Shown here: positions 8,211-26,285 of the stretch, in pieces
Position numbering within the stretch: position 1 is the first letter of the stretch
Layout of the letters: every line of letters starts with the position of its first letter
Assembly (NCBI GenBank): GCA_017534305.1
Contig: JAFWCU010000035.1
Location: forward strand, 18,455-50,454
Direction of reading: 5' to 3'
DNA: 32,000 nt
Source of the DNA: Clostridia bacterium
Lineage (GTDB): Bacteria > Bacillota > Clostridia > TANB77 > CAG-465
Translations under genes and position numbers: made by a program
Notes under the pieces: generated by a model
What the model was told of the DNA's origin: nothing
The model's database searches: none
The model's input: only the letters and a program-made list of their open reading frames with translations

Positions 8211-9170
8211 ATGAAAAATTATAGCAAAGTAGTCGAAAAGATGAAAAGTAAGCAGCTCACTCTTAAACAACTCAAATTAACCATGGAGGATATCAACTAT
8301 CTAAGAGACAATGGTCACAACGTGAAAGAACAATATGATCCTCGTGTAGAGGACTATGTATATTATATTGTCACATCTGGAGACACTGCATATATAAAAA
8401 TTTCTGATTCTTTAAAACAAGGACAAGAAGTAAACTTAAAACTTCTTGAAATATCCGATCTGCATTGCGGATGTAGAAATTTTGATAAGCAAGGCTTAGA
8501 TAGAACCCTTCAAGAGGCACAGGCTAGAGGAGTAGAGTTTGTTCACATTTCAGGAGACTTGATTGACGGATTTGGAGTTTATAGGGGACAAGAAAATAAC
8601 CTAAAACACAACAAAGCAATCGAGCAAATCAATGAACTGATGGCAGTTCTTGAAAAGTACGATTTTTGGTATATAGCCAGTATGGGTAACCATGATCAAT
8701 CATTTTGTATGAAAGGTGGGCTAGATCCAATTAAGTACTTGGAGGCTAAGATGGCAAAAAAAGGTAAAAGATTTACCTACTTAAGCGCCTACGAAGCAAA
8801 TATAATTCATGCAGGAATTGTATTTAGGTTGATCCACTTGTCTGGTGGTGCAGCTAGAGCAGCTTCATATAAAGTTCAAGTGTATCTTTCTAGAGTATTT
8901 GAAAGTAACCTAAACGATGTTGAGATAGGAGGCAAAATATATAACCTACGAAGCATTCAAGCAGGACACTTTCATACATTCTATTCACTATCGATGAGCG
9001 GTATAAGAATAATTATGCCGGGCAATTTCCAACACGATGGTGATCTTGAAAAGAGAATGGGTATTTCTGGAAAAACAGGGGGAATCTTCACTGAACTTAC
9101 TATTATTGGAGACAAAATAGCAAGGGAGAAGATAGAGTTCTTTGATCCTTGGGAAAGGAAGGAGGGATAA
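8211..9170 (+). CDS. calcineurin-like metallophosphoesterase with intact active site and an unassigned ~85-aa N-terminal domain (MPE-A)
   Basis: AGGAGGGAG RBS. Motifs ISDLHCG (DxH), SGDLIDG (GDxxD), MGNHDQS (GNHD), LIHLSGG (H) and AGHFHT (GHxH). Confidence 0.8.
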   Translation: MKNYSKVVEKMKSKQLTLKQLKLTMEDINYLRDNGHNVKEQYDPRVEDYVYYIVTSGDTAYIKISDSLKQGQEVNLKLLEISDLHCGCRNFDKQGLDRTLQEAQARGVEFVHISGDLIDGFGVYRGQENNLKHNKAIEQINELMAVLEKYDFWYIASMGNHDQSFCMKGGLDPIKYLEAKMAKKGKRFTYLSAYEANIIHAGIVFRLIHLSGGAARAASYKVQVYLSRVFESNLNDVEIGGKIYNLRSIQAGHFHTFYSLSMSGIRIIMPGNFQHDGDLEKRMGISGKTGGIFTELTIIGDKIAREKIEFFDPWERKEG

Positions 9171-9173
9171 TCT

Positions 9174-10136
9174 ATGAAAGAAGATTTTTTAACCTCACAA
9201 AAAGCATCTAATGCTCTTTCAAAAATGCGTGCAAAAGCGTGTACTTTAGAAGAGTTAGAACTTACACAAGAACAGATGGACGAGTTGATAGCAGCAACAG
9301 GAAATATTAACTGTAACGACAGGAATAAGACATATTATATAACTAAGTTTAATGAGAACAATTATGAAATAATTTCTTTTATAAACAGCGAAGAAATTAC
9401 TGAAAAATGGCTAGAAATAAGTGACTTGTACCTTGGTAGTGTTTTCTGTGATATGGAAATGCTTGAATATATCCTAAAACTTGCAAAAGAAGAAGGTATA
9501 ACCAACGTTCATATTGCTGGCGATTTATGCGCAGGACATCCTTCGTATAAAAAACAAGATTTGTATCTTACAGCAAAGACTGCACAAGAACAGGCTGATA
9601 TTGCTATAAAGCTTTTCTCTAAATTCCCAGAATTTAAATATTACTGTATTAATGGAGAAAGGGACCTATCATTTGAAAAAGGTGACTCTATTAACCCAAT
9701 CGTTTTAGTTCAAAGAGCTTTAAACGAAAAAGGAATAGATTTCCATCATATCAATGAAATGGTAGCAAACTTAGTCATAGACGGTGTAGTTAAGAGAATC
9801 CAGCATGGAACAGGAAGACTTGCATACACAAAGTCATACAAAATTGAGAAAGAAATGTGGCAGCAATTCGAAAATATGAGTGACAATGTCATCATAAAGA
9901 ATCGCAACTACAATATATGCTTTGTTCAATTCGGACATTATCATGTTAACTGTTTACAAAGATTGGGCGGAATAATGATTACATCAACTGCAGGTATGGT
10001 TATGGATGATAAAGGCGTTTTAAACGAGAATACATCATATCCATCTGCCAAATTCTCTACAGCTGTTATCAAGAATGGTAAAGTTGTAAGATTTGTGACT
10101 GAAAGCATTACCAATCCTAAAAACGTTACCATGTAA
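9174..10136 (+). CDS. paralogous metallophosphoesterase-fold protein with degenerate metal-binding motifs (MPE-B, probable pseudoenzyme)
   Basis: Starts 3 nt after the MPE-A stop. Aligns with MPE-A throughout, but the motifs read ISDLYLG, AGDLCAG and INGERDLS. RIQHGTG and FGHYHV are retained. Confidence 0.75.
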   Translation: MKEDFLTSQKASNALSKMRAKACTLEELELTQEQMDELIAATGNINCNDRNKTYYITKFNENNYEIISFINSEEITEKWLEISDLYLGSVFCDMEMLEYILKLAKEEGITNVHIAGDLCAGHPSYKKQDLYLTAKTAQEQADIAIKLFSKFPEFKYYCINGERDLSFEKGDSINPIVLVQRALNEKGIDFHHINEMVANLVIDGVVKRIQHGTGRLAYTKSYKIEKEMWQQFENMSDNVIIKNRNYNICFVQFGHYHVNCLQRLGGIMITSTAGMVMDDKGVLNENTSYPSAKFSTAVIKNGKVVRFVTESITNPKNVTM

Positions 10137-10186: not shown

Positions 10187-10798
10187 TTATTCTTTAGAAA
10201 TTACTTTCCTTTGCCAACTTTTCTTTCCACATTCTGGGCATTTCATATATCTTGTTCTACCAAAATGCATAGACCACAATACACTTGAAAATGTTGGAAC
10301 ATATTTATGATGACAGTTATTACATTCATAGTATCCAGCAGTTTGTTCAATTCTTATTGCAAATGGTATGGCAATTGCAAATTGTACAAAACCAATAAGT
10401 ATAAGTAAAACTCTTAGCCAATCTACCATTTCAATAAATGATGCTATAAATACTAAAACTAAAAATGTAATTGAAGCACCAAATCCAATAACATATTCTA
10501 GTGCAAGCATTCTTTTTGCTGTTTCTTCTTGCTCTTTTTTCATAGCAAGTATAATTTCATCATATTTTTTATCATTTTCGTTCATATTAATCATCTCCCC
10601 ATAAAATAATTCATTAATTCCTATACCAAGTATTTCACAAAGCTCTATCATAATAGAAGCGTCTGGTAGTGATTTTCCAGTTTCCCATTTAGATATCGCT
10701 CTATCTGAAATATTTAGTTTTTCTGCAAGTTCTAGTTGTGTAAGACCAACTTCTTTTCTACGAGCAGCAATAAATCTTCCAATTTTGATTTGATCCAT
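10187..10798 (-). CDS. membrane-tethered XRE-family HTH regulator with C-terminal zinc ribbon
   Basis: HTH_XRE core (IGRFIAARRKEVGLTQLELAEKLNISDRAISKWETGKSLPD), two TM segments, and CNNC...CPEC. I chose the ATG at 10798 (MDQIK) because GGAGG lies upstream; the track start is a TTG. Confidence 0.8.
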   Translation of the reverse strand: MDQIKIGRFIAARRKEVGLTQLELAEKLNISDRAISKWETGKSLPDASIMIELCEILGIGINELFYGEMINMNENDKKYDEIILAMKKEQEETAKRMLALEYVIGFGASITFLVLVFIASFIEMVDWLRVLLILIGFVQFAIAIPFAIRIEQTAGYYECNNCHHKYVPTFSSVLWSMHFGRTRYMKCPECGKKSWQRKVISKE

Positions 10799-10891
10799 AA
10801 TACTTTCCTCCTTCAATTATATTTTAATGAATTATTATATAAATTAACACGAACTGTTGGTTGAGTTTCTTCAATTATACCATTTTAAGCC

Positions 10892-10923
10892 AAAAAAAGA
10901 TATATAGAAAAATCTATATATCT
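10892..10923 (-). terminator. rho-independent terminator of the Fic gene
   Basis: Perfect 10-bp stem AGATATATAG (10898-10907) / CTATATATCT (10914-10923). The minus-strand T-run is the + strand A-run 10892-10898. The hairpin includes the Fic stop codon. Confidence 0.75.
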
Positions 10924-11924
10924 AAATGTGTTTTATAATATCGTTGGTTTTTACTCTTAGGCTTATCTGGAATTGTCATCTGTACATATCCATCTCTAAT
11001 AGCACAATTTAAATATTTATTTCTAAGAGTATCTTTGTGTTTAACATCTAATTTGAACATTATTTCATTTGCAGTCATAGGTTCTTCTTCCATATTTTCT
11101 AATAGTCTTTTTACATTAACGCTTGCTTCTGTATATACAAGTTTTGCAATAGTTTCTAAATCTTTTAAAGTTGTATTAATCATATCTAACATAAATTCTA
11201 CAAACACAGTAGATTCGCCATCAATATGAGCTTTAGCTATTGCATCATAATACTCTTTTTGATGTTTTTTTATCTGATTTTCAATAGGTACATATTCAAA
11301 TATATCTCTGTAATTGCATAAAATAGCGTTTTGCCAAAATCTAGCTGTACGGCCATTACCATCTTGAAAAGGATGTATAAAAACAAATTCATAGTGAAAG
11401 ATACAAGACATTATAATAGGATTAATATTATTTTTTTCTCTTTTCATCCAATCAAATAAATCTGAGATTAAATATGGTACTTGCTGTGGTGGAGGACAAA
11501 TAAATATACATTTATCTCCAGCAAAAACACCTTCGTTACCAGTTCTATACTTTCCAGCAAGTGGAGCCAAATCTTTTTCTATGATTCCATGAATCTTTAA
11601 TAAGTCTTTTTCTGAATATGGTTTTACTTTAGTTAATTGTTCATATGCAAGTTTAATATTTTGAACTTCTTTAATTTCATTTTCAGGTCCAACAACTTCT
11701 TTACCATCAATAATATCTCTAACTTGACCTTTAGAAAGCGTATTTCCTTCTATTGCAAGTGAAGCATGAATAGAAGTTATTTGAGTATTTCTTCTAAGTT
11801 TAGGTTCTTTATCTAATCTAGTATAATGTTTGTATTCTCCAACTTTTTCCATAATTGAAGATAAAGTTTCTAACATTTTATTTGTAATTGTAAATGGTGG
11901 AGTATAATTATCCATAAAAGTCAC
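10914..11924 (-). CDS. Fic family protein (class II, autoinhibited AMPylase type) with C-terminal wHTH-like tail
   Basis: Fic motif HPFQDGNGRTARFW. An N-terminal inhibitory-helix motif SLAIEGN matches (S/T)xxxE(G/N). Confidence 0.85.
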   Translation of the reverse strand: MTFMDNYTPPFTITNKMLETLSSIMEKVGEYKHYTRLDKEPKLRRNTQITSIHASLAIEGNTLSKGQVRDIIDGKEVVGPENEIKEVQNIKLAYEQLTKVKPYSEKDLLKIHGIIEKDLAPLAGKYRTGNEGVFAGDKCIFICPPPQQVPYLISDLFDWMKREKNNINPIIMSCIFHYEFVFIHPFQDGNGRTARFWQNAILCNYRDIFEYVPIENQIKKHQKEYYDAIAKAHIDGESTVFVEFMLDMINTTLKDLETIAKLVYTEASVNVKRLLENMEEEPMTANEIMFKLDVKHKDTLRNKYLNCAIRDGYVQMTIPDKPKSKNQRYYKTHLDI

Positions 11925-11994: not shown

Positions 11995-12044
11995 AAACAT
12001 ACATAAACAAAATGTTACAATTGTAGAATAAAGCAAAATGAAAA

Positions 12045-12087: not shown

Positions 12088-12163
12088 TGGAGCTGAAACT
12101 CAGATTCGAACTGAGGACCTACGGTTTACAAGACCGTTGCTCTACCAACTGAGCTATTCCAGC
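12088..12163 (-). tRNA. tRNA-Thr (anticodon UGU)
   Basis: Reverse complement GCTGGAATAGCTCAGTTGGTAGAGCAACGGTCTTGTAAACCGTAGGTCCTCAGTTCGAATCTGAGTTTCAGCTCCA. It folds as a cloverleaf with anticodon loop CTTGTAA and an encoded CCA. Confidence 0.93.
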
Positions 12164-12177
12164 ATATATACTTTTTA

Positions 12178-12252
12178 TGGTGACCCGTAGGAGAGTCGAA
12201 CTCCTCACTCCGCCGTGAAAGGGCGATGTCTTAACCGATTGACCAACGGGCC
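12178..12252 (-). tRNA. tRNA-Glu (anticodon UUC)
   Basis: Reverse complement GGCCCGTTGGTCAATCGGTTAAGACATCGCCCTTTCACGGCGGAGTGAGGAGTTCGACTCTCCTACGGGTCACCA. Anticodon loop CTTTCAC, encoded CCA. Confidence 0.93.
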
Positions 12253-12258
12253 CCATGA

Positions 12259-12334
12259 TGGTGAGCCATCGCAGATTCGAACTGCGGACAACTTGATTAA
12301 AAGTCAAGTGCTCTGCCAACTGAGCTAATGGCCC
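12259..12334 (-). tRNA. tRNA-Lys (anticodon UUU)
   Basis: Reverse complement GGGCCATTAGCTCAGTTGGCAGAGCACTTGACTTTTAATCAAGTTGTCCGCAGTTCGAATCTGCGATGGCTCACCA. Anticodon loop CTTTTAA, encoded CCA. Confidence 0.93.
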
Positions 12335-12406: not shown

Positions 12407-12551
12407 TAGATTTTATTTAAAAAAGCGAAAAAAATTGAAATTTGCAAATGAATTCAATTATTCTACAAATTATTATTTACAAAAGCTCTAGTTTTATAAC
12501 ATATCAGTCAAAGTATTGCAAGCTAAAAACAAGGGTGCTACTATATTTTAC

Positions 12552-12565
12552 GTGATTCAAATATT
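12552..12565. repeat. left arm of a 14-bp perfect inverted repeat (GTGATTCAAATATT)
   Basis: Exact reverse complement of 12746-12759. Confidence 0.9.
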
Positions 12566-12581
12566 TTCATTCTAATTATTT

Positions 12582-12637
12582 TTATCTATAATTTTTTATC
12601 TAAATTTTTTTATCTAAATTTTTTTATCTATTATTTA
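12582..12637. repeat. iteron-like tandem array, four 14-bp units starting TTATCTA
   Basis: TTATCTA occurs at 12582, 12596, 12610 and 12624, an exact 14-bp period. Units 2 and 3 are identical (TTATCTAAATTTTT). Confidence 0.9.
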
Positions 12638-12745
12638 AATTCTTAAACGTATTATCATATAATCTTAGTTTGTTTTTTAGTGAGGAAGGAAAAATAAAAT
12701 AACATTAATAGATACGTTTGCAACTTTAGTTTAGCAACAAGTTTT

Positions 12746-12759
12746 AATATTTGAATCAC
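12746..12759. repeat. right arm of the 14-bp perfect inverted repeat (AATATTTGAATCAC)
   Basis: Exact reverse complement of 12552-12565. It ends 26 nt before the next start codon. Confidence 0.9.
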
Positions 12760-12784
12760 ATTACTATATATAAGGAGGAGGTAT

Positions 12785-13126
12785 ATGAAATTAAACAAAT
12801 TATTGTGCATAATGTGTATAACCTTGTGCCTTTTTATAACATCATGTGTCTTTGCTGCAAATAATAATACTACAACAGGATCTACTCCAAGTTTAGTAAC
12901 TAAAATTAATTCTGCATTTACTAGAATTCAAGGCTACCTTAAAAAAATTTCAACCCCAATTGCCGGAGTTTGTATAGCAAGTGGAATAATTATTAGGAAA
13001 TTGAGCTTTGGAGATGAAAAGAAAATGATTACAGGAAAGAGAATAATTACTAATTCTGTAGTAGGATATGCTGCAATTCAACTGTTAGATTTAATAATTA
13101 AATTTATAGAAGCAGTAATAAAATAG
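12785..13126 (+). CDS. small secreted/lipoprotein-like protein with two C-terminal hydrophobic helices (VirB2/TrbC-like topology; function unassigned)
   Basis: Strong RBS AAGGAGGAGG. Signal peptide with a possible lipobox ITSC (Cys21) or an SPase I site VFA-A. Hydrophobic helices TPIAGVCIASGIII and NSVVGYAAIQLLDLII are separated by a charged loop. Confidence 0.6.
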   Translation: MKLNKLLCIMCITLCLFITSCVFAANNNTTTGSTPSLVTKINSAFTRIQGYLKKISTPIAGVCIASGIIIRKLSFGDEKKMITGKRIITNSVVGYAAIQLLDLIIKFIEAVIK

Positions 13127-13127
13127 T

Positions 13128-13922
13128 ATGGAAGAATATATAAAAAGTTTAAATGAAGTCTTAAATAGGCTAAGTATATCGTTAAGAAGCAATATTTATT
13201 CTGTAATAGATAAGATAGCAAATATAGATGTTTCTCTTTTTGACAAAGAACCACTAAAAAGTATATGCAATACTAATTTACTATATATAGTATTAACACT
13301 AATATGGGCAATAATAATTGCTATTGCAGTAAAATATGTTTTAAATCTATATAGTGACATAGCAATCAGTAAAATATACTTTTATATTTTAAAATGTGTT
13401 GTAATAGGCATCATTAGTATAAATAGTTATAGTATTTGTAAAGAAATTATTAGGATAAATAATCTTCTTACACATATAATAGCTTCATCTTTAGAAGAAA
13501 CAATAGATTCATCAATTGAGTATAAATTTTTAGATGATAACATAGATTCGATAGATGAACTTATATCTTCAAAAGATAAACTTAGTTTAAATGGAGTAAA
13601 AGATGGTATAGTTTGTTTTTATATGATATCCCTTTTAGTATTATTATCTCTAAGATATGTAATAGTAATATCATGCATAATTATCTCACCAGTAATGTGT
13701 ATATTATTACTTGTGCCTAACTTAAATAATTATTTTTATACATATATAAAAGTATTCATATACAATCTATTACTTCAAAACATAAACATACTTATACTAT
13801 ATATACCAATATCTGCAAGAACAGAAAATAGTGTTTTCTTACCTATCATAATAGGTAGCATTGTACTTATATATAATGTAAATAAAAAGGCTGGAAGTAT
13901 TATTTATGAGAAAAAGAATTAA
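13128..13922 (+). CDS. polytopic membrane protein, 5-6 TM (VirB6/TrbL-like topology; function unassigned)
   Basis: The ATG lies 1 nt after the upstream stop. There are several long hydrophobic segments and no soluble-domain motif. Confidence 0.6.
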   Translation: MEEYIKSLNEVLNRLSISLRSNIYSVIDKIANIDVSLFDKEPLKSICNTNLLYIVLTLIWAIIIAIAVKYVLNLYSDIAISKIYFYILKCVVIGIISINSYSICKEIIRINNLLTHIIASSLEETIDSSIEYKFLDDNIDSIDELISSKDKLSLNGVKDGIVCFYMISLLVLLSLRYVIVISCIIISPVMCILLLVPNLNNYFYTYIKVFIYNLLLQNINILILYIPISARTENSVFLPIIIGSIVLIYNVNKKAGSIIYEKKN

Positions 13923-14262
13923 TAAACAACAAATATTTAATTTTTATAATAAAACACACAAGTGGCATGGCTTAATAGATTATAAATCATTAACGATAAT
14001 AGCTGTGTACGTATTTTTATGTGGCTATCTAGTGATCAACATGAATATTACAAATACGCTAAAGTTATATGTAATTATTATATTAGTTTTACCAGTAATA
14101 ATATTTACACTTTTAAATATTAATGAAGATTGTGTTGTTGAAAAACTTGTTACAATTGTCTGTTATTTACTATCTAAAAGGGTGTATACAAAGTCAATAG
14201 ATTTCAAGGAAAAGAAGACTATCTACAAAAAGAATGCGGAAAATAGTCGTATTGAAAAATAG
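13906..14262 (+). CDS. small two-TM protein (TcpE/VirB3-like size and topology; function unassigned)
   Basis: Overlaps the upstream gene by 17 nt. 118 aa: a basic aromatic N-terminus, two TM helices, and a basic C-terminal tail. Confidence 0.55.
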   Translation: MRKRINKQQIFNFYNKTHKWHGLIDYKSLTIIAVYVFLCGYLVINMNITNTLKLYVIIILVLPVIIFTLLNINEDCVVEKLVTIVCYLLSKRVYTKSIDFKEKKTIYKKNAENSRIEK

Positions 14263-14280
14263 TCGAATTAGTGATATAAT
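14252..14280 (+). promoter_or_regulatory. near-consensus sigma-A promoter for the loader operon
   Basis: TTGAAA (14252-14257), 17-nt spacer with TGa, TATAAT (14275-14280). It overlaps the end of the preceding gene. Confidence 0.65.
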
Positions 14281-14307
14281 GACATCCAATTAAGAAGGAG
14301 TATATAT

Positions 14308-16304: not shown

Positions 16305-16338
16305 AAGAAAGAGTACCGAATAATTGGTACTCTTTTTT
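16304..16338. terminator. bidirectional rho-independent terminator
   Basis: Stem AGAGTACC (16310-16317) / GGTACTCT (16326-16333), with an A-rich run upstream and a T-run downstream. It lies between convergent genes. Confidence 0.75.
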
Positions 16339-17254
16339 ATCCATTAAATTCTTCTCTTTTTCTTTCAATTTTTAGTAATTGTTCATATAGTTTTTCTTCT
16401 CTTTCAGATATATCTTCAGGAAGATCAATGTGAACTTTTAGATTTAAGTCTCCACGATTTCCATCTTCAGTGACATATCCTTTGTTTGGTACAGTTACTA
16501 TTTCACCATCTCTTAAACGCTTTGGTAGAGAAACAAATAATTTTTCATCCATAACTTGAAGCTTGTACTTTCCACCAAGAGCAGCAACAGCTGGAGTAAT
16601 ATTAATATCTTTGTTAAAATCTGTTCCTTCAATTTTAAACTCTGGATCATCTAGTAATTTAACATGTATAATTAAATCTCCGTTCTTACCACCATTTTTC
16701 CCTGGATTACCAAGAGCAGCAAGTCTAATCTTGTCTCCGTTTTTTATTCCAACTGGTACTTTAACAGAAAATGTTTTCATTCCAGTTTTGTGTGCACGTA
16801 TTGCTATTTTCTTTTCTGCCCCAAAGAAACCTTCTTCAAGAGTTACATCTAAATGAGTAACTATATCTGAACCTTTAATTGGTTTTTTCTTATCATCTAT
16901 ATTCTCATTATTTGAATTATTATCGCCTTTTCTAAATCCTAAAATTTGGTTTAATATATCGTTAAATACATTTGCACCAGATTTGAATTCATATTTTACA
17001 TCTTGTAGTCCTGATTCTATATTTGCAAATCCATATCCATATCTTGCAACTTGTCTATCATATTTTCTTTTTTTCTCTGGATCCATAAGGATCGCATAAG
17101 CTTCATTTATATCTTTAAACTTTTCTTCAGCATCTTTGCTTTTATTTTTATCTGGATGATATTCTTTAGCAAGTCTTCTAAAGTTAAGTTTTATATCTTG
17201 ATCAGAACTTTTTCTGTTGACTTCCAATATTGCGTAATAGTTTTTTTGTTTCAT
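16337..17254 (-). CDS. J-domain co-chaperone, CbpA-like (no zinc-finger domain)
   Basis: J domain YYAILEVNRKSS...EYHPDKNK with HPD. A DnaJ C-terminal beta domain is present. There are no CxxCxGxG repeats. Confidence 0.8.
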   Translation of the reverse strand: MKQKNYYAILEVNRKSSDQDIKLNFRRLAKEYHPDKNKSKDAEEKFKDINEAYAILMDPEKKRKYDRQVARYGYGFANIESGLQDVKYEFKSGANVFNDILNQILGFRKGDNNSNNENIDDKKKPIKGSDIVTHLDVTLEEGFFGAEKKIAIRAHKTGMKTFSVKVPVGIKNGDKIRLAALGNPGKNGGKNGDLIIHVKLLDDPEFKIEGTDFNKDINITPAVAALGGKYKLQVMDEKLFVSLPKRLRDGEIVTVPNKGYVTEDGNRGDLNLKVHIDLPEDISEREEKLYEQLLKIERKREEFNG

Positions 17255-21233: not shown

Positions 21234-21564
21234 GTAGTATTTCAGATGATTGCTTGCCTTTATGGCCAGAGGAAAGTCCGGACACTATAGAGCAGGGTGC
21301 TAGATAACGTCTAGTGGGAGTGATTCTAAGGAAAGTGCAACAGAAAATTACCGCTACTTTTGTAGTAAGGGTGAAAACGCGAGGTAAGAGCTCACGACAA
21401 TCTATGGAGACACAGATTGGGTGTAAACCCCACCTAGTGCAACACCAGAATGAAACGATATCAGGTTGCTCGCCAAGTTTCAAGTTGGTGGCTTGAGATG
21501 CATAGCAATATGCATTCTAGATAAATAATCATCTAATACAGAATCCGGCTTATGAAATGCTCAT
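21234..21564 (+). ncRNA. rnpB: RNase P RNA (bacterial), compact, about 330 nt; ends approximate
   Basis: Universal P4 halves GAGGAAAGTCCGG (from 21269) and ACAGAATCCGGCTTA (from 21538). P2 is AGATGATT / AATCATCT and P1 is AGTATTTC / GAAATGCT. An upstream TGaTATAAT (21222-27) fits the 5' end. Confidence 0.9.
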
Positions 21565-21577
21565 ATTTATATTTTTT

Positions 21578-21651: not shown

Positions 21652-21680
21652 TTGACAATTATTTTATTTTAATATAAAAT
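21652..21680 (+). promoter_or_regulatory. sigma-A promoter of the CofE-like/T4CP operon
   Basis: TTGACA (21652-21657), 17-nt spacer, TAAAAT (21675-21680). Confidence 0.6.
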
Positions 21681-21716
21681 TTAAATAGTTAAATTCACAA
21701 GATTGGAGGTATTATT

Positions 21717-22415
21717 ATGGAGTTTAAAGCTTTAGAAGGAAAAAATGTAGAAATACAAGTAGGAGACAACAAATATATGAGACATGCAATTGAGACTCAC
21801 TACATTCAACTTGGTGAAAGTTATATTGACATTGTTAAACAATATGTTTCTCCTATTTACGAAGAGGGAGATATTGTATCGTTTAGTGAAAAAATAATTT
21901 CTTTATGCCAAAAGAATATTGTATATAAAAAGGACGTAAAAGTATCCGGTCTTGCTAAGTTCTTATCTAAATTTGCTATGAGAACAGATGCAGGTATCGG
22001 TGTAGATAGCCCATATAAAATGCAATTTGCTATAGATATAAATGGACCTTGGAAAGTTTTATGGGCAGCAATAGCTGGAGGATTCTGCAAAATTTTTGGA
22101 AAACATGGTGTTTTCTATGAAATCGTAGGTAAAGAAGTTAGTGGACTTGATGGATTCTATGGAGATGTATTCTCAGATTATTCAGAATTTGGTATCAAAA
22201 TTCCACAAAATCCAAATGGAGTATGTAATGAAATATACGAAAAAACAGGAGTTAAATCTATGATTGTTGATGCAAATGACTTTAACCAAGAAATACTAGG
22301 TAAAGCAGATGCAATTGAAGAATCTGAAGAAGAACTAATTGGTATGATCAAAGATAACCCTTGTGGTCAAGCCAAAACATTAACACCAATGGTATTAATT
22401 AGAAAAGTTAAATAG
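21717..22415 (+). CDS. CofE-like (F420-0:gamma-glutamyl ligase fold) protein
   Basis: GDIVSFSEKIISLCQ resembles the CofE GD(I/V)xVxxxKxxSKAEG segment. The C-terminal DNPCGQAKTLTPMVLIRK resembles the conserved CofE tail. Assignment by eye. Confidence 0.5.
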   Translation: MEFKALEGKNVEIQVGDNKYMRHAIETHYIQLGESYIDIVKQYVSPIYEEGDIVSFSEKIISLCQKNIVYKKDVKVSGLAKFLSKFAMRTDAGIGVDSPYKMQFAIDINGPWKVLWAAIAGGFCKIFGKHGVFYEIVGKEVSGLDGFYGDVFSDYSEFGIKIPQNPNGVCNEIYEKTGVKSMIVDANDFNQEILGKADAIEESEEELIGMIKDNPCGQAKTLTPMVLIRKVK

Positions 22416-22441
22416 ATTTAATTTAGAAGAGGGGTTGAATT

Positions 22442-23011
22442 ATGGATAGTTTATTTAAAATGAACAAGTTTGAGGTTATTGACTTACCAGGTATGAACAC
22501 ATTAGCTTTTTTAGTTGAAAGAGATTATGATGCGTATACTCAAGGTTATGCATATTTATCTCTAGAAAAGCTAAGAAGTGTAGAGGTAAGAGAAGAAAAC
22601 CAAGTAAAAAAAGTATTTAATGTGCTTGTTGATGACCCAGAAGATGAAGACGATATAGTTCTTCTAACACTTACAGATAGCAAAGCATTCTTAAGTACAG
22701 GAATCCTAGATAAAAATGGATTTACAGTAGAAAATAGTAATGTTTCTCTAACATATGGCTCAATATATAATACAGAAGGTATTGAGTACAGAGATGTTGC
22801 TTACACACCAGACTTAAGAAGAAACTTCTCAATTATTGATTCTCAAACAGGAGAAGAAGTTAAACCTTCTCTATATAGAGACGATAATGGTGAGGTCAGA
22901 GGTAGATGCAAAATTATGCCTAATAGACCATACATAGTATTAGAAGTATCAATGGAAGATGAAGACATTAGAAAATTAAAGCTTGATGAAGAAGCAGATG
23001 AAATGATTTAG
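22442..23011 (+). CDS. acidic hypothetical protein (189 aa)
   Basis: RBS GAGGGG. Rich in D/E (DDPEDEDD, MEDEDIRKLKLDEEADEMI). No family recognised. Confidence 0.6.
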   Translation: MDSLFKMNKFEVIDLPGMNTLAFLVERDYDAYTQGYAYLSLEKLRSVEVREENQVKKVFNVLVDDPEDEDDIVLLTLTDSKAFLSTGILDKNGFTVENSNVSLTYGSIYNTEGIEYRDVAYTPDLRRNFSIIDSQTGEEVKPSLYRDDNGEVRGRCKIMPNRPYIVLEVSMEDEDIRKLKLDEEADEMI

Positions 23012-23022
23012 GAGGTATAATA

Positions 23023-23205
23023 ATGAGTAAGAAAAGTATTCACGATAAAATTAAAGTTGATATGGTTGAAGGACTTATTACTGAAAAAGGTGAATTTATT
23101 CCAGAAAAAGGAATAAGTGTAAAAAATAAAGAAGTAAGAAATCTTTCTCCAGAGCAAATTAAGAAAGCAAAAGAAAGAGGAGAATACGACGATAAAGTTA
23201 GATAA
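23023..23205 (+). CDS. small charged hypothetical protein (60 aa)
   Basis: AGGAGG RBS 11 nt after the upstream stop. K/E-rich with no hydrophobic segment. Confidence 0.5.
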   Translation: MSKKSIHDKIKVDMVEGLITEKGEFIPEKGISVKNKEVRNLSPEQIKKAKERGEYDDKVR

Positions 23206-23225
23206 TATAAGAAGGAGTTTATGAA

Positions 23226-25334
23226 ATGAGAGATTTTTTTGATGATTTTAAACAAAAAGCTCCAATACTTATAATTATATCACTTATACTATCTATTGTT
23301 TTTGGTGGAGCATTAACAAAATCAATTGTAGATGCAAAAGCTGCTGGCAGTACTTCAATGATTGCTACAATATTTTCTACTTTGTTAGGAAATATAACAA
23401 GTTTCCAATTTTTCTCTGGAATATTTGCAGACTTTTTAACATTCTTAAAAATTACAGGAGTTATATTTGTTGCTGTATTTGGTATTTATCTATATGCTAA
23501 ATATAAAGCTAGTCAAGTAGGCGAATATGAAGGAAAAGAAAATGGTTCTAGCCAATGGGGTAAAGGAGCAGAAGACTTTAAGCACGCATCAGATGGTAAA
23601 GAAATACTAAACAAAAAAGAAGGATTTATACTAAGTAAAACACATTACTTAGGAACAGATTTAAGAAAAGTTGGTATCAATAAAAACATTCTTGTTGTCG
23701 GTGGTTCTGGTTCTGGTAAAACTGCATGTTATATTAAACCAAATATCATGCAATGTTTAGGATCATATATTATCACTGACCCTAAAGGAGAATTATATAA
23801 AGAGACATCACAATTTTTAAAATCTGAAGGCTATGATGTTAAAGCATTTAACCTTGTAAACCCAACATATAGTGATTTCTATAACCCAATATACAATATA
23901 TGTTCAGACCAAGACGTAGATACATTAGCTCACATCTTAGTTACAGGAGCAAATAAAGAAGGTGGCGGCGGAGATGACCCATTCTGGGATAACACTGCAA
24001 AAATGTTAATTTCTGCTACTATTTACTATGTTTTATCTGTTCTACCATTAGAACAACAAAACATAGGAAGCTGTCTAAACATTATTCGTCAAGGTGGTGC
24101 AGATAGTTCAATATTTGAAAAATTATTTGTTGATGATTTAATGCCAGAACATCCTGGTAGAATTCAATATGAATCATTTAAAACTGCTGCAGATAAAACA
24201 ATGCAATCAATAGTTATTTCATCTATTTCTAAAATGCGTGTTTTTGATATGCCAGCAATTCAAAGAATAACATCATCTAACAGCATTAACTTTAGAGATG
24301 TTGCAAAGAAGAAAACAGTTATATATGTTATAACATCAGCTGCTGAAAGTACATATGATTTTGTATCTACAATGTTCTTTAGCCAAATGTTCTCAATACT
24401 ATATAAACAAGCAGATGACTATGGTTCAAGATTACCAAATCAAGTATATTTCTTACTAGATGAGTTTGCAAACATTGGTCAAATACCAGACTTTCAAAAG
24501 AAGTTATCTACAACTCGTAGTTTAGGTATTTCTATCTCAATTATTGTACAATCACTTGACCAATTAGAAGCATTATACAAAGACTCATATGAAAATATTC
24601 TTGGTAACTGTGATACTCAATTATTACTTGGTACTAACTCACAAAAAACAGCTGAGTATTTCTCAAAGAGTTTAGGACAAACAACAATTAAGATTGAACA
24701 AAAATCTGTTAGCAAAGATAAAGACGAACATAAAAAACAAAGTGTATCTGTAAGTACACAAAGACAAGCAAGAGATCTAATGACTGTTGATGAAATTAGA
24801 CGTATGGATAACAACAAAGAAATTCTTATGGTTAGAGGTCTAAAGCCAATTATGGCAGAAAAAGCTTGGTACTTTAAAGTTCATCCAAAAAGAGATATTA
24901 TCGAATCAATGAAACTTGGAAGTATCAAAGATATGCCAATACCAGAAGAACTTCCATATTCATATTTTGATGTTCAAAAATACTTACAAGACAGAAAAAG
25001 ACGTGCTCAAGAAATTCTTAAAAACAGATCAAAAGATGTTCAAGTGGACACTGGATATTCATCTGCTACTCAAGACAAAAGCAGACCATATGGCACTGTA
25101 GATAAAAATAGAGAAGCAGAAATTGATCATAGACCACTTGCAAATGGAATGGATTCAAATTCATATAATGATTTATATGAAAACAATGACTATAATCCAA
25201 TTGCTGATGCTCAAACAAGTGAAAGCAAAGCACCAAATGAAATAACTCAAGAAGATTATGATCTACAATCTGAACTTGAATCTAAATTTGATAAACTATT
25301 CGGTTCAAGCAGCTCTGCTGTTAATGACGATTAA
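23226..25334 (+). CDS. type IV coupling protein (VirD4/TraG/TraD family ATPase)
   Basis: N-terminal TM helices, Walker A VVGGSGSGKT, ITDPKGELY, Walker B VYFLLDEFANIG, SIIVQSLDQL, and an acidic C-terminal tail. Confidence 0.85.
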   Translation: MRDFFDDFKQKAPILIIISLILSIVFGGALTKSIVDAKAAGSTSMIATIFSTLLGNITSFQFFSGIFADFLTFLKITGVIFVAVFGIYLYAKYKASQVGEYEGKENGSSQWGKGAEDFKHASDGKEILNKKEGFILSKTHYLGTDLRKVGINKNILVVGGSGSGKTACYIKPNIMQCLGSYIITDPKGELYKETSQFLKSEGYDVKAFNLVNPTYSDFYNPIYNICSDQDVDTLAHILVTGANKEGGGGDDPFWDNTAKMLISATIYYVLSVLPLEQQNIGSCLNIIRQGGADSSIFEKLFVDDLMPEHPGRIQYESFKTAADKTMQSIVISSISKMRVFDMPAIQRITSSNSINFRDVAKKKTVIYVITSAAESTYDFVSTMFFSQMFSILYKQADDYGSRLPNQVYFLLDEFANIGQIPDFQKKLSTTRSLGISISIIVQSLDQLEALYKDSYENILGNCDTQLLLGTNSQKTAEYFSKSLGQTTIKIEQKSVSKDKDEHKKQSVSVSTQRQARDLMTVDEIRRMDNNKEILMVRGLKPIMAEKAWYFKVHPKRDIIESMKLGSIKDMPIPEELPYSYFDVQKYLQDRKRRAQEILKNRSKDVQVDTGYSSATQDKSRPYGTVDKNREAEIDHRPLANGMDSNSYNDLYENNDYNPIADAQTSESKAPNEITQEDYDLQSELESKFDKLFGSSSSAVNDD

Positions 25335-25339
25335 TAAAT

Positions 25340-25368
25340 AAAAAGGCTCTCAAAAAGAGTCTTTTTTT
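25340..25368 (+). terminator. rho-independent terminator after the T4CP gene
   Basis: Stem AGGCTCT (25344-25350) / AGAGTCT (25356-25362) with one G-T pair, followed by T7. Confidence 0.7.
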
Positions 25369-25394: not shown

Positions 25395-25423
25395 TTGAAA
25401 ATCTATATTATATATAGTATAAT
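25395..25423 (+). promoter_or_regulatory. sigma-A promoter
   Basis: TTGAAA (25395-25400), 17-nt spacer, TATAAT (25418-25423). Confidence 0.65.
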
Positions 25424-26178: not shown

Positions 26179-26186
26179 ATCACTAT

Positions 26187-26263
26187 GCCAAGCGATAGAG
26201 TACTGTGAACCTTGTCAGGTCCGGAAGGAAGCAGCAATAAGCAATATACTCTATGTGCCTGGC
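26187..26263 (+). ncRNA. ffs: small (4.5S-type) signal recognition particle RNA, about 77 nt
   Basis: Conserved domain IV core GTCAGGTCCGGAAGGAAGCAGC. The ends GCCAAGCGATAGAGTA / TACTCTATGTGCCTGGC pair into one long hairpin, followed by T7. Confidence 0.85.
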
Positions 26264-26285
26264 TTTTTTTGTTATAGGAGGGAAT

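Follow-up and report, generated by a model that had tools for sequence, protein, structure and literature searches.

Type IV coupling proteins (T4CPs) are regarded as substrate receptors of type IV secretion machines, and the locus analysed here raises the question of what such a protein does where no secretion channel is encoded beside it. The locus lies in a stretch of 32,000 nucleotides (nt) from a Clostridia bacterium (GenBank assembly GCA_017534305.1, contig JAFWCU010000035.1, positions 18,455 to 50,454), which we call the window. Between two RNA genes, rnpB and ffs, the window encodes a VirD4/TraG-type coupling ATPase, preceded by genes for a CofE-like protein (P1), an acidic protein (P2) and a small protein (P3) and followed by a gene for a membrane protein (P5). 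A preliminary description of this DNA had read P1, P2, P3 and the T4CP as one operon and one domesticated functional module. We find that the conserved unit, referred to as the module below, consists of P2, the small protein and the T4CP, to which P5 is added in the window's clade.

The coupling protein

The T4CP gene (23226..25334, + strand, with the Shine-Dalgarno-like sequence AAGGAG) encodes 702 amino acids (aa). Its product matches PF02534 with E = 1e-84 and the NCBIfam model NF045973 ('VirD4-like conjugal transfer protein, CD1115 family') with 434.9 bits against a cut-off of 250. Two hydrophobic segments were detected near the N-terminus (residues 8-36 and 62-92, Kyte-Doolittle window), the all-alpha domain is recognized by PF10412 (TrwB_AAD_bind, E = 7.8e-31, residues 152-538), and GGSGSGKT, DPKGE and LLDEF are all found. 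Residues 566-702 form an acidic, low-complexity tail with an isoelectric point (pI) of 4.5. These matches bear out the earlier description of the last gene as a T4CP with a transmembrane (TM) anchor, the three motifs and an acidic tail. The match to FtsK_SpoIIIE is weak (E = 0.09).

Among the 43-44 orthologues that cover them, Walker A (GGSGxGK[ST]), DPKGE, Walker B (LLDEF) and GNCDT are invariant. The T4CPs of the module carry an additional motif at the C-terminus, [FY]D[LI]Qx[EQ]LExKF[DN]ELFG, which follows a long variable linker and is invariant wherever the C-terminus of a module T4CP is complete, also in the distant loci L088 and L089. In the window it lies at 25261-25308 on the + strand (residues ~679-694, YDLQSELESKFDKLFG). 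The motif was not found in the five T4CPs of mobile genetic elements (MGEs) that were compared. The same five served as the outside comparison in a neighbour-joining tree, in which the module T4CPs, distant ones included, were monophyletic in 195/200 bootstrap replicates; the closest plasmid-borne T4CPs are 34-38% identical to that of the window. Judged by their sequences, the module T4CPs are a distinct, selected subfamily. A role of the module in anti-phage defence was considered and rejected: the sole PADLOC match, of the T4CP to 'mad8', was weak (23 bits) and fits generic P-loop similarity.

P2 and the small protein

P2 (22442..23011, +, 189 aa, Shine-Dalgarno-like GAGGGG) has a pI of 4.35 in the window, and the median across P2 proteins is 4.9. 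We detected 418 word-indexed relatives and 108 clusters among 1.84 billion representatives, but neither a Pfam or NCBIfam match at E <= 0.1 nor a match in PADLOC or PHROGs. The AlphaFold2 model (pLDDT 82.8) is all-beta with a C-terminal helix and found no Foldseek match in PDB or BFVD, so that the label 'unassignable', given earlier to the two middle proteins, fits P2. PcfB, a basic, helix-rich protein of ~160 aa, was rejected as an identification, since P2 is acidic and all-beta in its model and the PcfB sequences are K-rich and unrelated by eye.

The small open reading frame (ORF) between the P2 and T4CP genes is present in all ~43 syntenic loci and evolves fast; in the window it encodes P3 (23023..23205, +, 60 aa, K/E-rich, Shine-Dalgarno-like AGGAGG). 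The small proteins are mostly acidic or K/E-rich and of low complexity, and in most loci they end in an acidic-hydrophobic tip such as GEDDMII, GENDLIV, EEDEPIV or DGYDDNII. An extended P2 ends in the tip in the window's sublineage (...EEADEMI in the window, 22982-23011), and P3 lacks it. The tip occurs on exactly one of the two proteins in 31/40 loci and on both in 0/40; tip-like ends were seen in 26 of 1270 background ORF ends. By sequence and position, P3 is the positional equivalent of the tip-bearing small protein of other lineages. In two homologues, P0362 and P0364, P2 and the small protein form one fused chain, with the C-terminal sequences GDDELIV and EADELIV, respectively. Because the two are fused in some lineages and share one C-terminal tip, the sequences suggest that P2 and the small protein belong together as a two-part partner with a docking tip. 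The strongly acidic character that had been pointed out for the middle protein is borne out by its low pI; the tract DDPEDEDD is restricted to the window's lineage. At locus L048, the small ORF (11234-11374) is shorter than in L033 and L039, which may reflect an assembly error or real decay.

Distribution and descent

We sampled the window's clade (clade 1) by a scan with the P1 alignment, keeping one genome per species. This gave 80 loci, among them ~45 species-level genomes with conserved gene order; neighbourhoods were inspected over 8-10 kb to each side. The order is ParC-like ... rnpB, P1, (VanW), P2, small ORF, T4CP, P5, ffs, dnaX, ybaB, recR, and the relatives include Clostridium sp. 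CAG:465. When the rnpB-ffs interval was compared across relatives, as had been proposed, the position of the module was conserved in 7/9 of those tested. Relative to the window, identity drops as low as 49% for the T4CP and, in parallel, 51% for DnaX. Pairwise T4CP identity correlates with that of ParC (rho 0.75) and DnaX (rho 0.57), and its mean is 0.64 versus 0.63 for DnaX. The ratio of nonsynonymous to synonymous substitution rates (dN/dS) of the motor part was ~0.07-0.25, with dS near 1, in the pairs printed.

A metagenome scan with six distant P2 sequences revealed a second clade, with at least 294 loci of which 80 were kept (L100-L179). In 62 of the 63 clade-2 loci with enough downstream sequence, a T4CP gene lies within 1.5 kb of P2. 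The usual order is SleB, YpeB, MurF-like, Ddl, HD, DnaJ-like, P2, small, T4CP, SbcD-like, SbcC-like, PrfA. In more distant lineages, all five P2 homologues whose contigs extend past the small ORF are followed by that ORF (or have it fused to P2, as in L092) and a T4CP-like gene. Four of these (P0370, P0371, P0381 and P0427) have the small ORF and then a T4CP 40-47% identical to that of the window, closer than any plasmid T4CP, and downstream of P0467, a P2 fused to a small-protein segment, the match is weaker and to the T4CP N-terminus (31% over 74 residues). On the P0373 contig, the sequence stops past the small ORF, within a short hydrophobic N-terminal piece that has no T4CP match. Where the surroundings of the distant lineages are visible, they read rpmB, trio, SbcD/SbcC-like or DnaJ, trio. 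Altogether the trio recurs in more than 110 loci, in two deep clades and scattered lineages, with housekeeping surroundings throughout. The neighbourhood survey that had been suggested thus shows the trio co-occurring, and P1 not belonging to it.

Two kinds of neighbours recur at these loci. A gene for a DnaJ+DnaJ_C (CbpA-like) protein stands directly upstream of P2 in 32/33 long clade-2 loci and also in L088 and L093; the DnaJ-like gene of the window (16337-17254, - strand) lies ~5 kb upstream of P2 on the opposite strand. Directly 3' of the T4CP gene, clade 2 and L089 have a pair of Metallophos and AAA_23/AAA_27 genes (SbcD/SbcC- or YhaO/YhaN-like). Examples of such DnaJ or SbcCD-like neighbours are found in L119 (10979-12058), L176 (12957-14870) and L089 (11067-13778). 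In L037, from a gut Clostridiaceae metagenome-assembled genome, an OLE (ornate large extremophilic) RNA (1712-2326, - strand, 345 bits) is located a few kb upstream of the module.

The mobile-element context typical of the protein family was not encountered at these loci. MGE members of NF045973 lie in PcfB-T4CP-Maff2-VirB6(CD1112)-PrgI-VirB4(CD1110) or relaxase-T4CP-topoisomerase arrays; the former context was seen in Enterococcus, Vescimonas and Monoglobus elements and not in module loci. By tblastn, VirB4, VirB6, PcfB, the C40 peptidase, CD1107 and the MobA/L relaxase were found in 0/80 clade-2 loci. No relaxase or VirB4 was present within 8 kb in the ~45 clade-1 loci, judged from the recognised genes there, and relaxase, VirB4 and integrase are missing among the genes of the 32 kb window, in agreement with the initial remark that the T4CP has neither a relaxase nor a VirB4 beside it. 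Searches of 72,556 plasmids, 50,697 phage records and 2.9 million viral contigs (IMG/VR) gave no match to P2, and a phage, plasmid or viral origin of P2 was rejected on this basis. We also looked for the same T4CP inside an ordinary integrative and conjugative element (ICE) in related genomes; the relatives show housekeeping synteny instead. From these sequence comparisons, the module is chromosomally fixed and vertically inherited, descends from a CD1115-type conjugative coupling protein, and is neither an ICE nor a remnant of one. Given synteny, selection and the lack of a linked type IV secretion system (T4SS), a domesticated T4CP used for something other than classical conjugation, as first proposed, is the best reading.

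Possible function and alternatives

The function that we favour, with slightly better than even confidence, is that of a stand-alone module in which an active membrane motor and a P2/small-protein partner act without a linked channel, preferably on protein or peptide cargo. The T4CP would be an active membrane-anchored ATPase, a hexamer by analogy, and operate with no VirB4/VirB6 channel linked to it. Its dedicated cytoplasmic partner, either adaptor or cargo, would be P2 together with the small protein. Docking may involve short terminal motifs, namely the tip [DE][DE]x[ILM][IV]-COOH on P2 or the small protein and, as a second contact, the C-terminal motif of the T4CP at the end of its variable linker; we infer this role from the conservation and complementary placement of the motifs. 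Such a layout would resemble a minimal coupling complex of the DotL-IcmS/IcmW kind. Cargo moved at or across the single membrane would more likely be protein or peptide than DNA: the partners are acidic and lack the character of DNA-binding proteins, the gene usually found upstream encodes a J-domain protein, and a relaxase is missing.

Several points weigh against this proposal. The absence of T4SS genes applies to the 8-10 kb per side that were inspected and would be compatible with an unlinked T4SS elsewhere in the genome; moreover, these are uncultured organisms. In 9/40 loci the tip is missing or degenerate, and it is different in distant lineages. To our knowledge, there is no demonstrated case of a T4CP carrying cargo through a membrane in the absence of a channel. 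Finally, a DNA substrate would be in keeping with the DNA-metabolism genes nearby (dnaX-ybaB-recR here, SbcD/SbcC-like genes downstream in clade 2 and L089).

The last point leads to the idea of a DNA motor, that is, an FtsK/SpoIIIE-like membrane pump or DNA-end partner acting on chromosomal or incoming DNA, with P2 and the small protein as regulators. This would not require a secretion channel, and T4CPs are ancestrally DNA translocases whose all-alpha domain is kept here (PF10412), but neither a relaxase nor an FtsK gamma-like domain is present. The surroundings can be read in two ways. In the window's clade the module stands beside dnaX-ybaB-recR and a ParC/GyrA-like gene, and in clade 2 and L089 it is directly upstream of the Metallophos and AAA_23/AAA_27 genes; however, this neighbourhood may be mere inherited gene order, and the window's clade lacks the SbcCD-like genes. 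Nor is there an evident DNA-binding partner, with P2 at a median pI of 4.9 and small proteins that are mostly acidic or K/E-rich. We consider a DNA motor unlikely, but a serious rival.

A little more doubtful still is a split system, in which the T4CP of the module serves a T4SS or conjugation apparatus encoded elsewhere, or resident or incoming mobile elements. More than 110 loci, drawn from at least two deep clades, gave no linked T4SS gene, but the view of each neighbourhood spanned only 8-10 kb per side, and the literature discusses T4SS components that act in trans or have been domesticated as protein exporters (PMC3158045). The full score for the CD1115 VirD4-like family and the retention of TM anchor, nucleotide-binding domain (NBD) and all-alpha domain would suit such a service. 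Yet T4SS genes normally cluster with the T4CP gene, as they do in the MGE arrays; P2, the small protein and P5 are unrelated to PcfB, Maff2, VirB6 and VirB8; and the module T4CPs have their own C-terminal motif.

P1 (21717..22415, +, 232 aa, Shine-Dalgarno-like GGAGG) was central to the original proposal that four genes form one unit, in which the T4CP exports what the CofE-like ligase has modified. The resemblance to the CofE fold is borderline. P1 matches PF01996 over residues 25-85 only, with 25.1 bits at a cut-off of 25, and it remains far under the equivalog cut-offs of TIGR01916 (12.4 vs 180.65) and TIGR04132 (29 vs 350), the latter being 'putative folate metabolism gamma-glutamate ligase', to which P1 matches are weak. 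The N-terminal match of ~60 residues recurs in 17/17 P1 homologues, and a profile search of PDB sequences with P1 did not find CofE. P1 itself is strongly conserved (74-99% identity among the best 120 of 1570 matches).

In the window a gap of 26 nt, which contains no terminator, separates P1 from P2, and throughout the window's clade P1 is adjacent or one gene away; it is probably co-transcribed with the module in the window. However, P1 abuts P2 in only 17/45 syntenic loci, and a VanW/PG_binding_4/G5 gene stands between them in the other 28. Homologues of P1 at 55-68% identity (Oscillospiraceae, Bacilli, Solobacterium and others) had no P2, T4CP or P5 within 8 kb, and those of the Oscillospiraceae adjoin genes for the formate-tetrahydrofolate ligase Fhs (PF01268) and an FTCD_C cyclohydrolase-type protein (PF04961). 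Conversely, P1 was not nearby in the 80 clade-2 loci or in L087-L094, although the trio is present there. Since VanW intervenes in 28/45 loci and each occurs without the other, P1 falls outside the conserved unit, and the four genes do not form one functional unit. The adjacency of P1 and P2 is best read, from the gene orders, as the outcome of VanW gene loss in the window's sublineage. The company of folate genes hints at a CofE-like family in folate metabolism, and P1 is probably a housekeeping neighbour unrelated to the module, a folate-linked ligase of the CofE superfamily. With P1 independent of the module and its relation to CofE borderline, the notion of an exported, ligase-modified substrate lost its footing and is very improbable. 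In these Oscillospiraceae loci (L060-L075; examples of the folate-gene neighbourhood are L061, 4003-5664, and L060, 4010-4720), a VanW/G5 gene often follows as well.

A decaying remnant of an ICE or of an integrative and mobilizable element that happens to persist, an idea that can draw on the occurrence of this T4CP family on conjugative elements otherwise, is excluded for practical purposes, because the locus keeps the same chromosomal position in ~45 species, its T4CP diverges at the rate of DnaX with invariant catalytic motifs and dN/dS well below 1 at saturated dS, and no integrase, relaxase or compositional anomaly accompanies it.

A candidate +1 frameshift

The T4CP gene of the window is unsplit (GTC GGT GGA TCT), whereas the orthologous gene is split at one place in 13/44 clade-1 and 34/61 clade-2 loci. 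In 13/44 and 32/61 loci, respectively, the split is located just before Walker A, where GTT GGA C GGA TCT GGT would be read as V G, a +1 shift, and G S G. In two further split loci of clade 2, the inserted C precedes this site by one codon (GTA C GGA GGT). Common to all split genes is a CGG codon in the 0 frame, created by one extra C, that becomes a glycine codon, GGN, when read in the +1 frame. Examples are L048 (11547-13524, shift at 12021), L027 (12018), L157 (9327), L146 and L178.

Both parts are open in 12/13 clade-1 and 29/29 clade-2 split genes, and both are under purifying selection (among the pairs printed, dN/dS < 0.5 at a dS of about 1 between split members). In both clades, the split genes are scattered among unsplit ones in the tree. 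CGG is almost unused in these genomes: in long ORFs it makes up 7/47,633 codons in clade-1 split loci, 0/56,946 in clade-2 split loci and 0/8,062 in the window, a usage of 0-0.15 per 1000 codons. No Shine-Dalgarno-like stimulator of the prfB type is evident at the shift site. Assembly artefacts and pseudogenes were rejected as explanations of the splits, since the assemblies are independent, dS is near 1 and the parts are intact and selected. The sequences make the split T4CP orthologues candidates for programmed +1 frameshifting at a rare CGG codon. One of them, in L039, has a second interruption in the C part after 134 codons, which may be an assembly error or real decay.

The closest described case is that of glass-sponge mitochondrial genes, in which a +1 frameshift occurs at a rare CGG_A or UGG_A, with the inserted base 5' of GGA (PMC5009743). 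The two are alike in the rare CGG with GGN in the +1 frame. The T4CP shift differs from glass sponge, yeast Ty3 and bacterial prfB in that it would occur in a bacterial chromosomal gene and inside the Walker A motif of an ATPase.

P5, an accessory membrane protein

P5 (25446..26138, +, 230 aa) has its own Shine-Dalgarno sequence and a promoter-like sequence of its own, TTGAAA-17-TATAAT (25395..25423, +, 11/12 positions match). It has 34 syntenic orthologues and belongs to a family of 228 members that corresponds to no Pfam family. The AlphaFold2 model (pLDDT 86.1) combines a TM helix with an immunoglobulin-like beta-sandwich ectodomain. There was no Foldseek match in PDB at E <= 0.001, and VirB8, TraM and TcpC were not among the matches. 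A VirB8-like channel subunit, which would have an NTF2-like alpha+beta ectodomain, was rejected on account of the beta-sandwich and the lack of a PDB match. P5 is absent where SecD/SecF follow the T4CP gene directly (L023, L037, L046, L047 and L049) and also from the other clades; by its distribution it is a clade-specific accessory gene.

Layout of the locus and of the window

The interval that holds the module is bounded upstream by the class A RNase P RNA gene rnpB (21234..21567, +, Rfam RF00010, 261 bits) and downstream by ffs, the gene of the small signal recognition particle RNA (26184..26269, +, RF00169, 68 bits), after which dnaX-ybaB-recR follow. Rfam matches on both sides thus support the position between rnpB and ffs given in the preliminary description. 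The genes for P1, P2, P3 and the T4CP are all on the + strand, with gaps of 26, 11 and 20 nt, and the ORF and sequence check agrees with the statement that each has its own Shine-Dalgarno sequence. These four listed ORFs are real, but as a count of the genes in the rnpB-ffs interval four falls short, the fifth gene, P5, having been overlooked.

The proposed frame of one promoter and one terminator stands in part. The hairpin with U-run after the T4CP gene (25340..25366, +) is terminator-like, with -10.8 kcal/mol and z = -4.2, although a simple terminator scan did not flag it. Upstream of P1, TTGACA-17-TAAAAT (21652..21680, +) matches the consensus at 11/12 positions and is, by sequence, a plausible promoter site, but such matches are not enriched in this AT-rich region (33 vs 28.8 +/- 5.8 in shuffles). 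The composition is host-like, as had been remarked: GC is 0.29-0.32 across the region and similar to that of the flanks.

Otherwise, the window encodes MiaA, KsgA, a G5-SLT protein, Fic, DnaD-, DnaI- and DnaJ-like proteins, a ParC/GyrA-like protein, an AI-2E transporter, DnaX, YbaB and RecR. Three stretches away from the module stand out. At 8211-10136, two adjacent ORFs of 319 and 320 aa belong to no Pfam family and have a GC of 0.34-0.36 versus ~0.29 around them. At 10187-11924 (- strand), a Fic/DOC-family gene adjoins an HTH_3 regulator gene, and the two could be a toxin-antitoxin-like or regulatory pair. The lowest GC of the window (0.23-0.24) is found at 12500-14300, between a tRNA Thr-Glu-Lys cluster (12088-12334, - strand) close by on its upstream side and the DnaD- and DnaI-like genes on its downstream side; its three ORFs (113, 264 and 118 aa) have no Pfam match.

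Significance

No description of a stand-alone, orphan or domesticated, vertically inherited T4CP module was found in the literature searched. Systems without VirD4 have their own section in a 2025 review of T4SS diversity, and a word search of that review did not meet the converse case, a VirD4 that is conserved where no system is present. Tentatively, and with less confidence than we place in the stand-alone motor as such, we propose that a conjugation-derived T4CP with two new partners and no type IV channel has become a housekeeping membrane translocase or recruitment motor in large, uncultured clades of low-GC gut Clostridia, with a programmed +1 shift at CGG in about half of the lineages. 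If so, a coupling motor can be exapted on its own, and the level of this motor is tied to the decoding of a near-unassigned codon. The module would then offer a defined three-gene system for asking what a coupling protein does without a channel. The lineages concerned are abundant uncultured gut Clostridia with small AT-rich genomes, and the module adds two protein families, P2 and P5, without detectable relatives of known fold. The frameshift, if real, would be a rare bacterial +1 recoding event at an almost unused sense codon and would bear on how codons become unassigned in AT-rich genomes.

Comparison with known systems

Membrane-anchored motors of the FtsK-HerA type that operate without a T4SS channel are known in FtsK/SpoIIIE and in the ATPases EssC/EccC of type VII secretion systems, sisters of the T4CPs, and EssC/EccC recognise the C-terminal tails of small substrates. 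Compared with these, the T4CP of the window has a single ATPase domain, no gamma domain and no FHA domains.

In the Dot/Icm system of Legionella, the C-terminal extension of the T4CP DotL docks the small acidic adaptors IcmS/IcmW and LvgA, together with DotM/N, and cargo is recognised by acidic or hydrophobic C-terminal signals. The module differs in that P2 has no sequence or fold kinship to IcmS/W and no Dot/Icm channel is present; the organism is a monoderm, and the interaction of the module's parts is inferred.

Closest in sequence are the CD1115-family T4CPs of Firmicutes plasmids and ICEs (the E. faecium plasmid NZ_LR135387, Vescimonas, Monoglobus), which belong to the same hidden Markov model family at 33-38% identity and likewise have an N-terminal TM anchor, an NBD with Walker A and B, and an all-alpha domain. 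Unlike these, the T4CPs of the module stand apart from linked channel genes; they are monophyletic, chromosomal and syntenic, are accompanied by P2 and a small protein instead of PcfB, and carry a C-terminal motif of their own.

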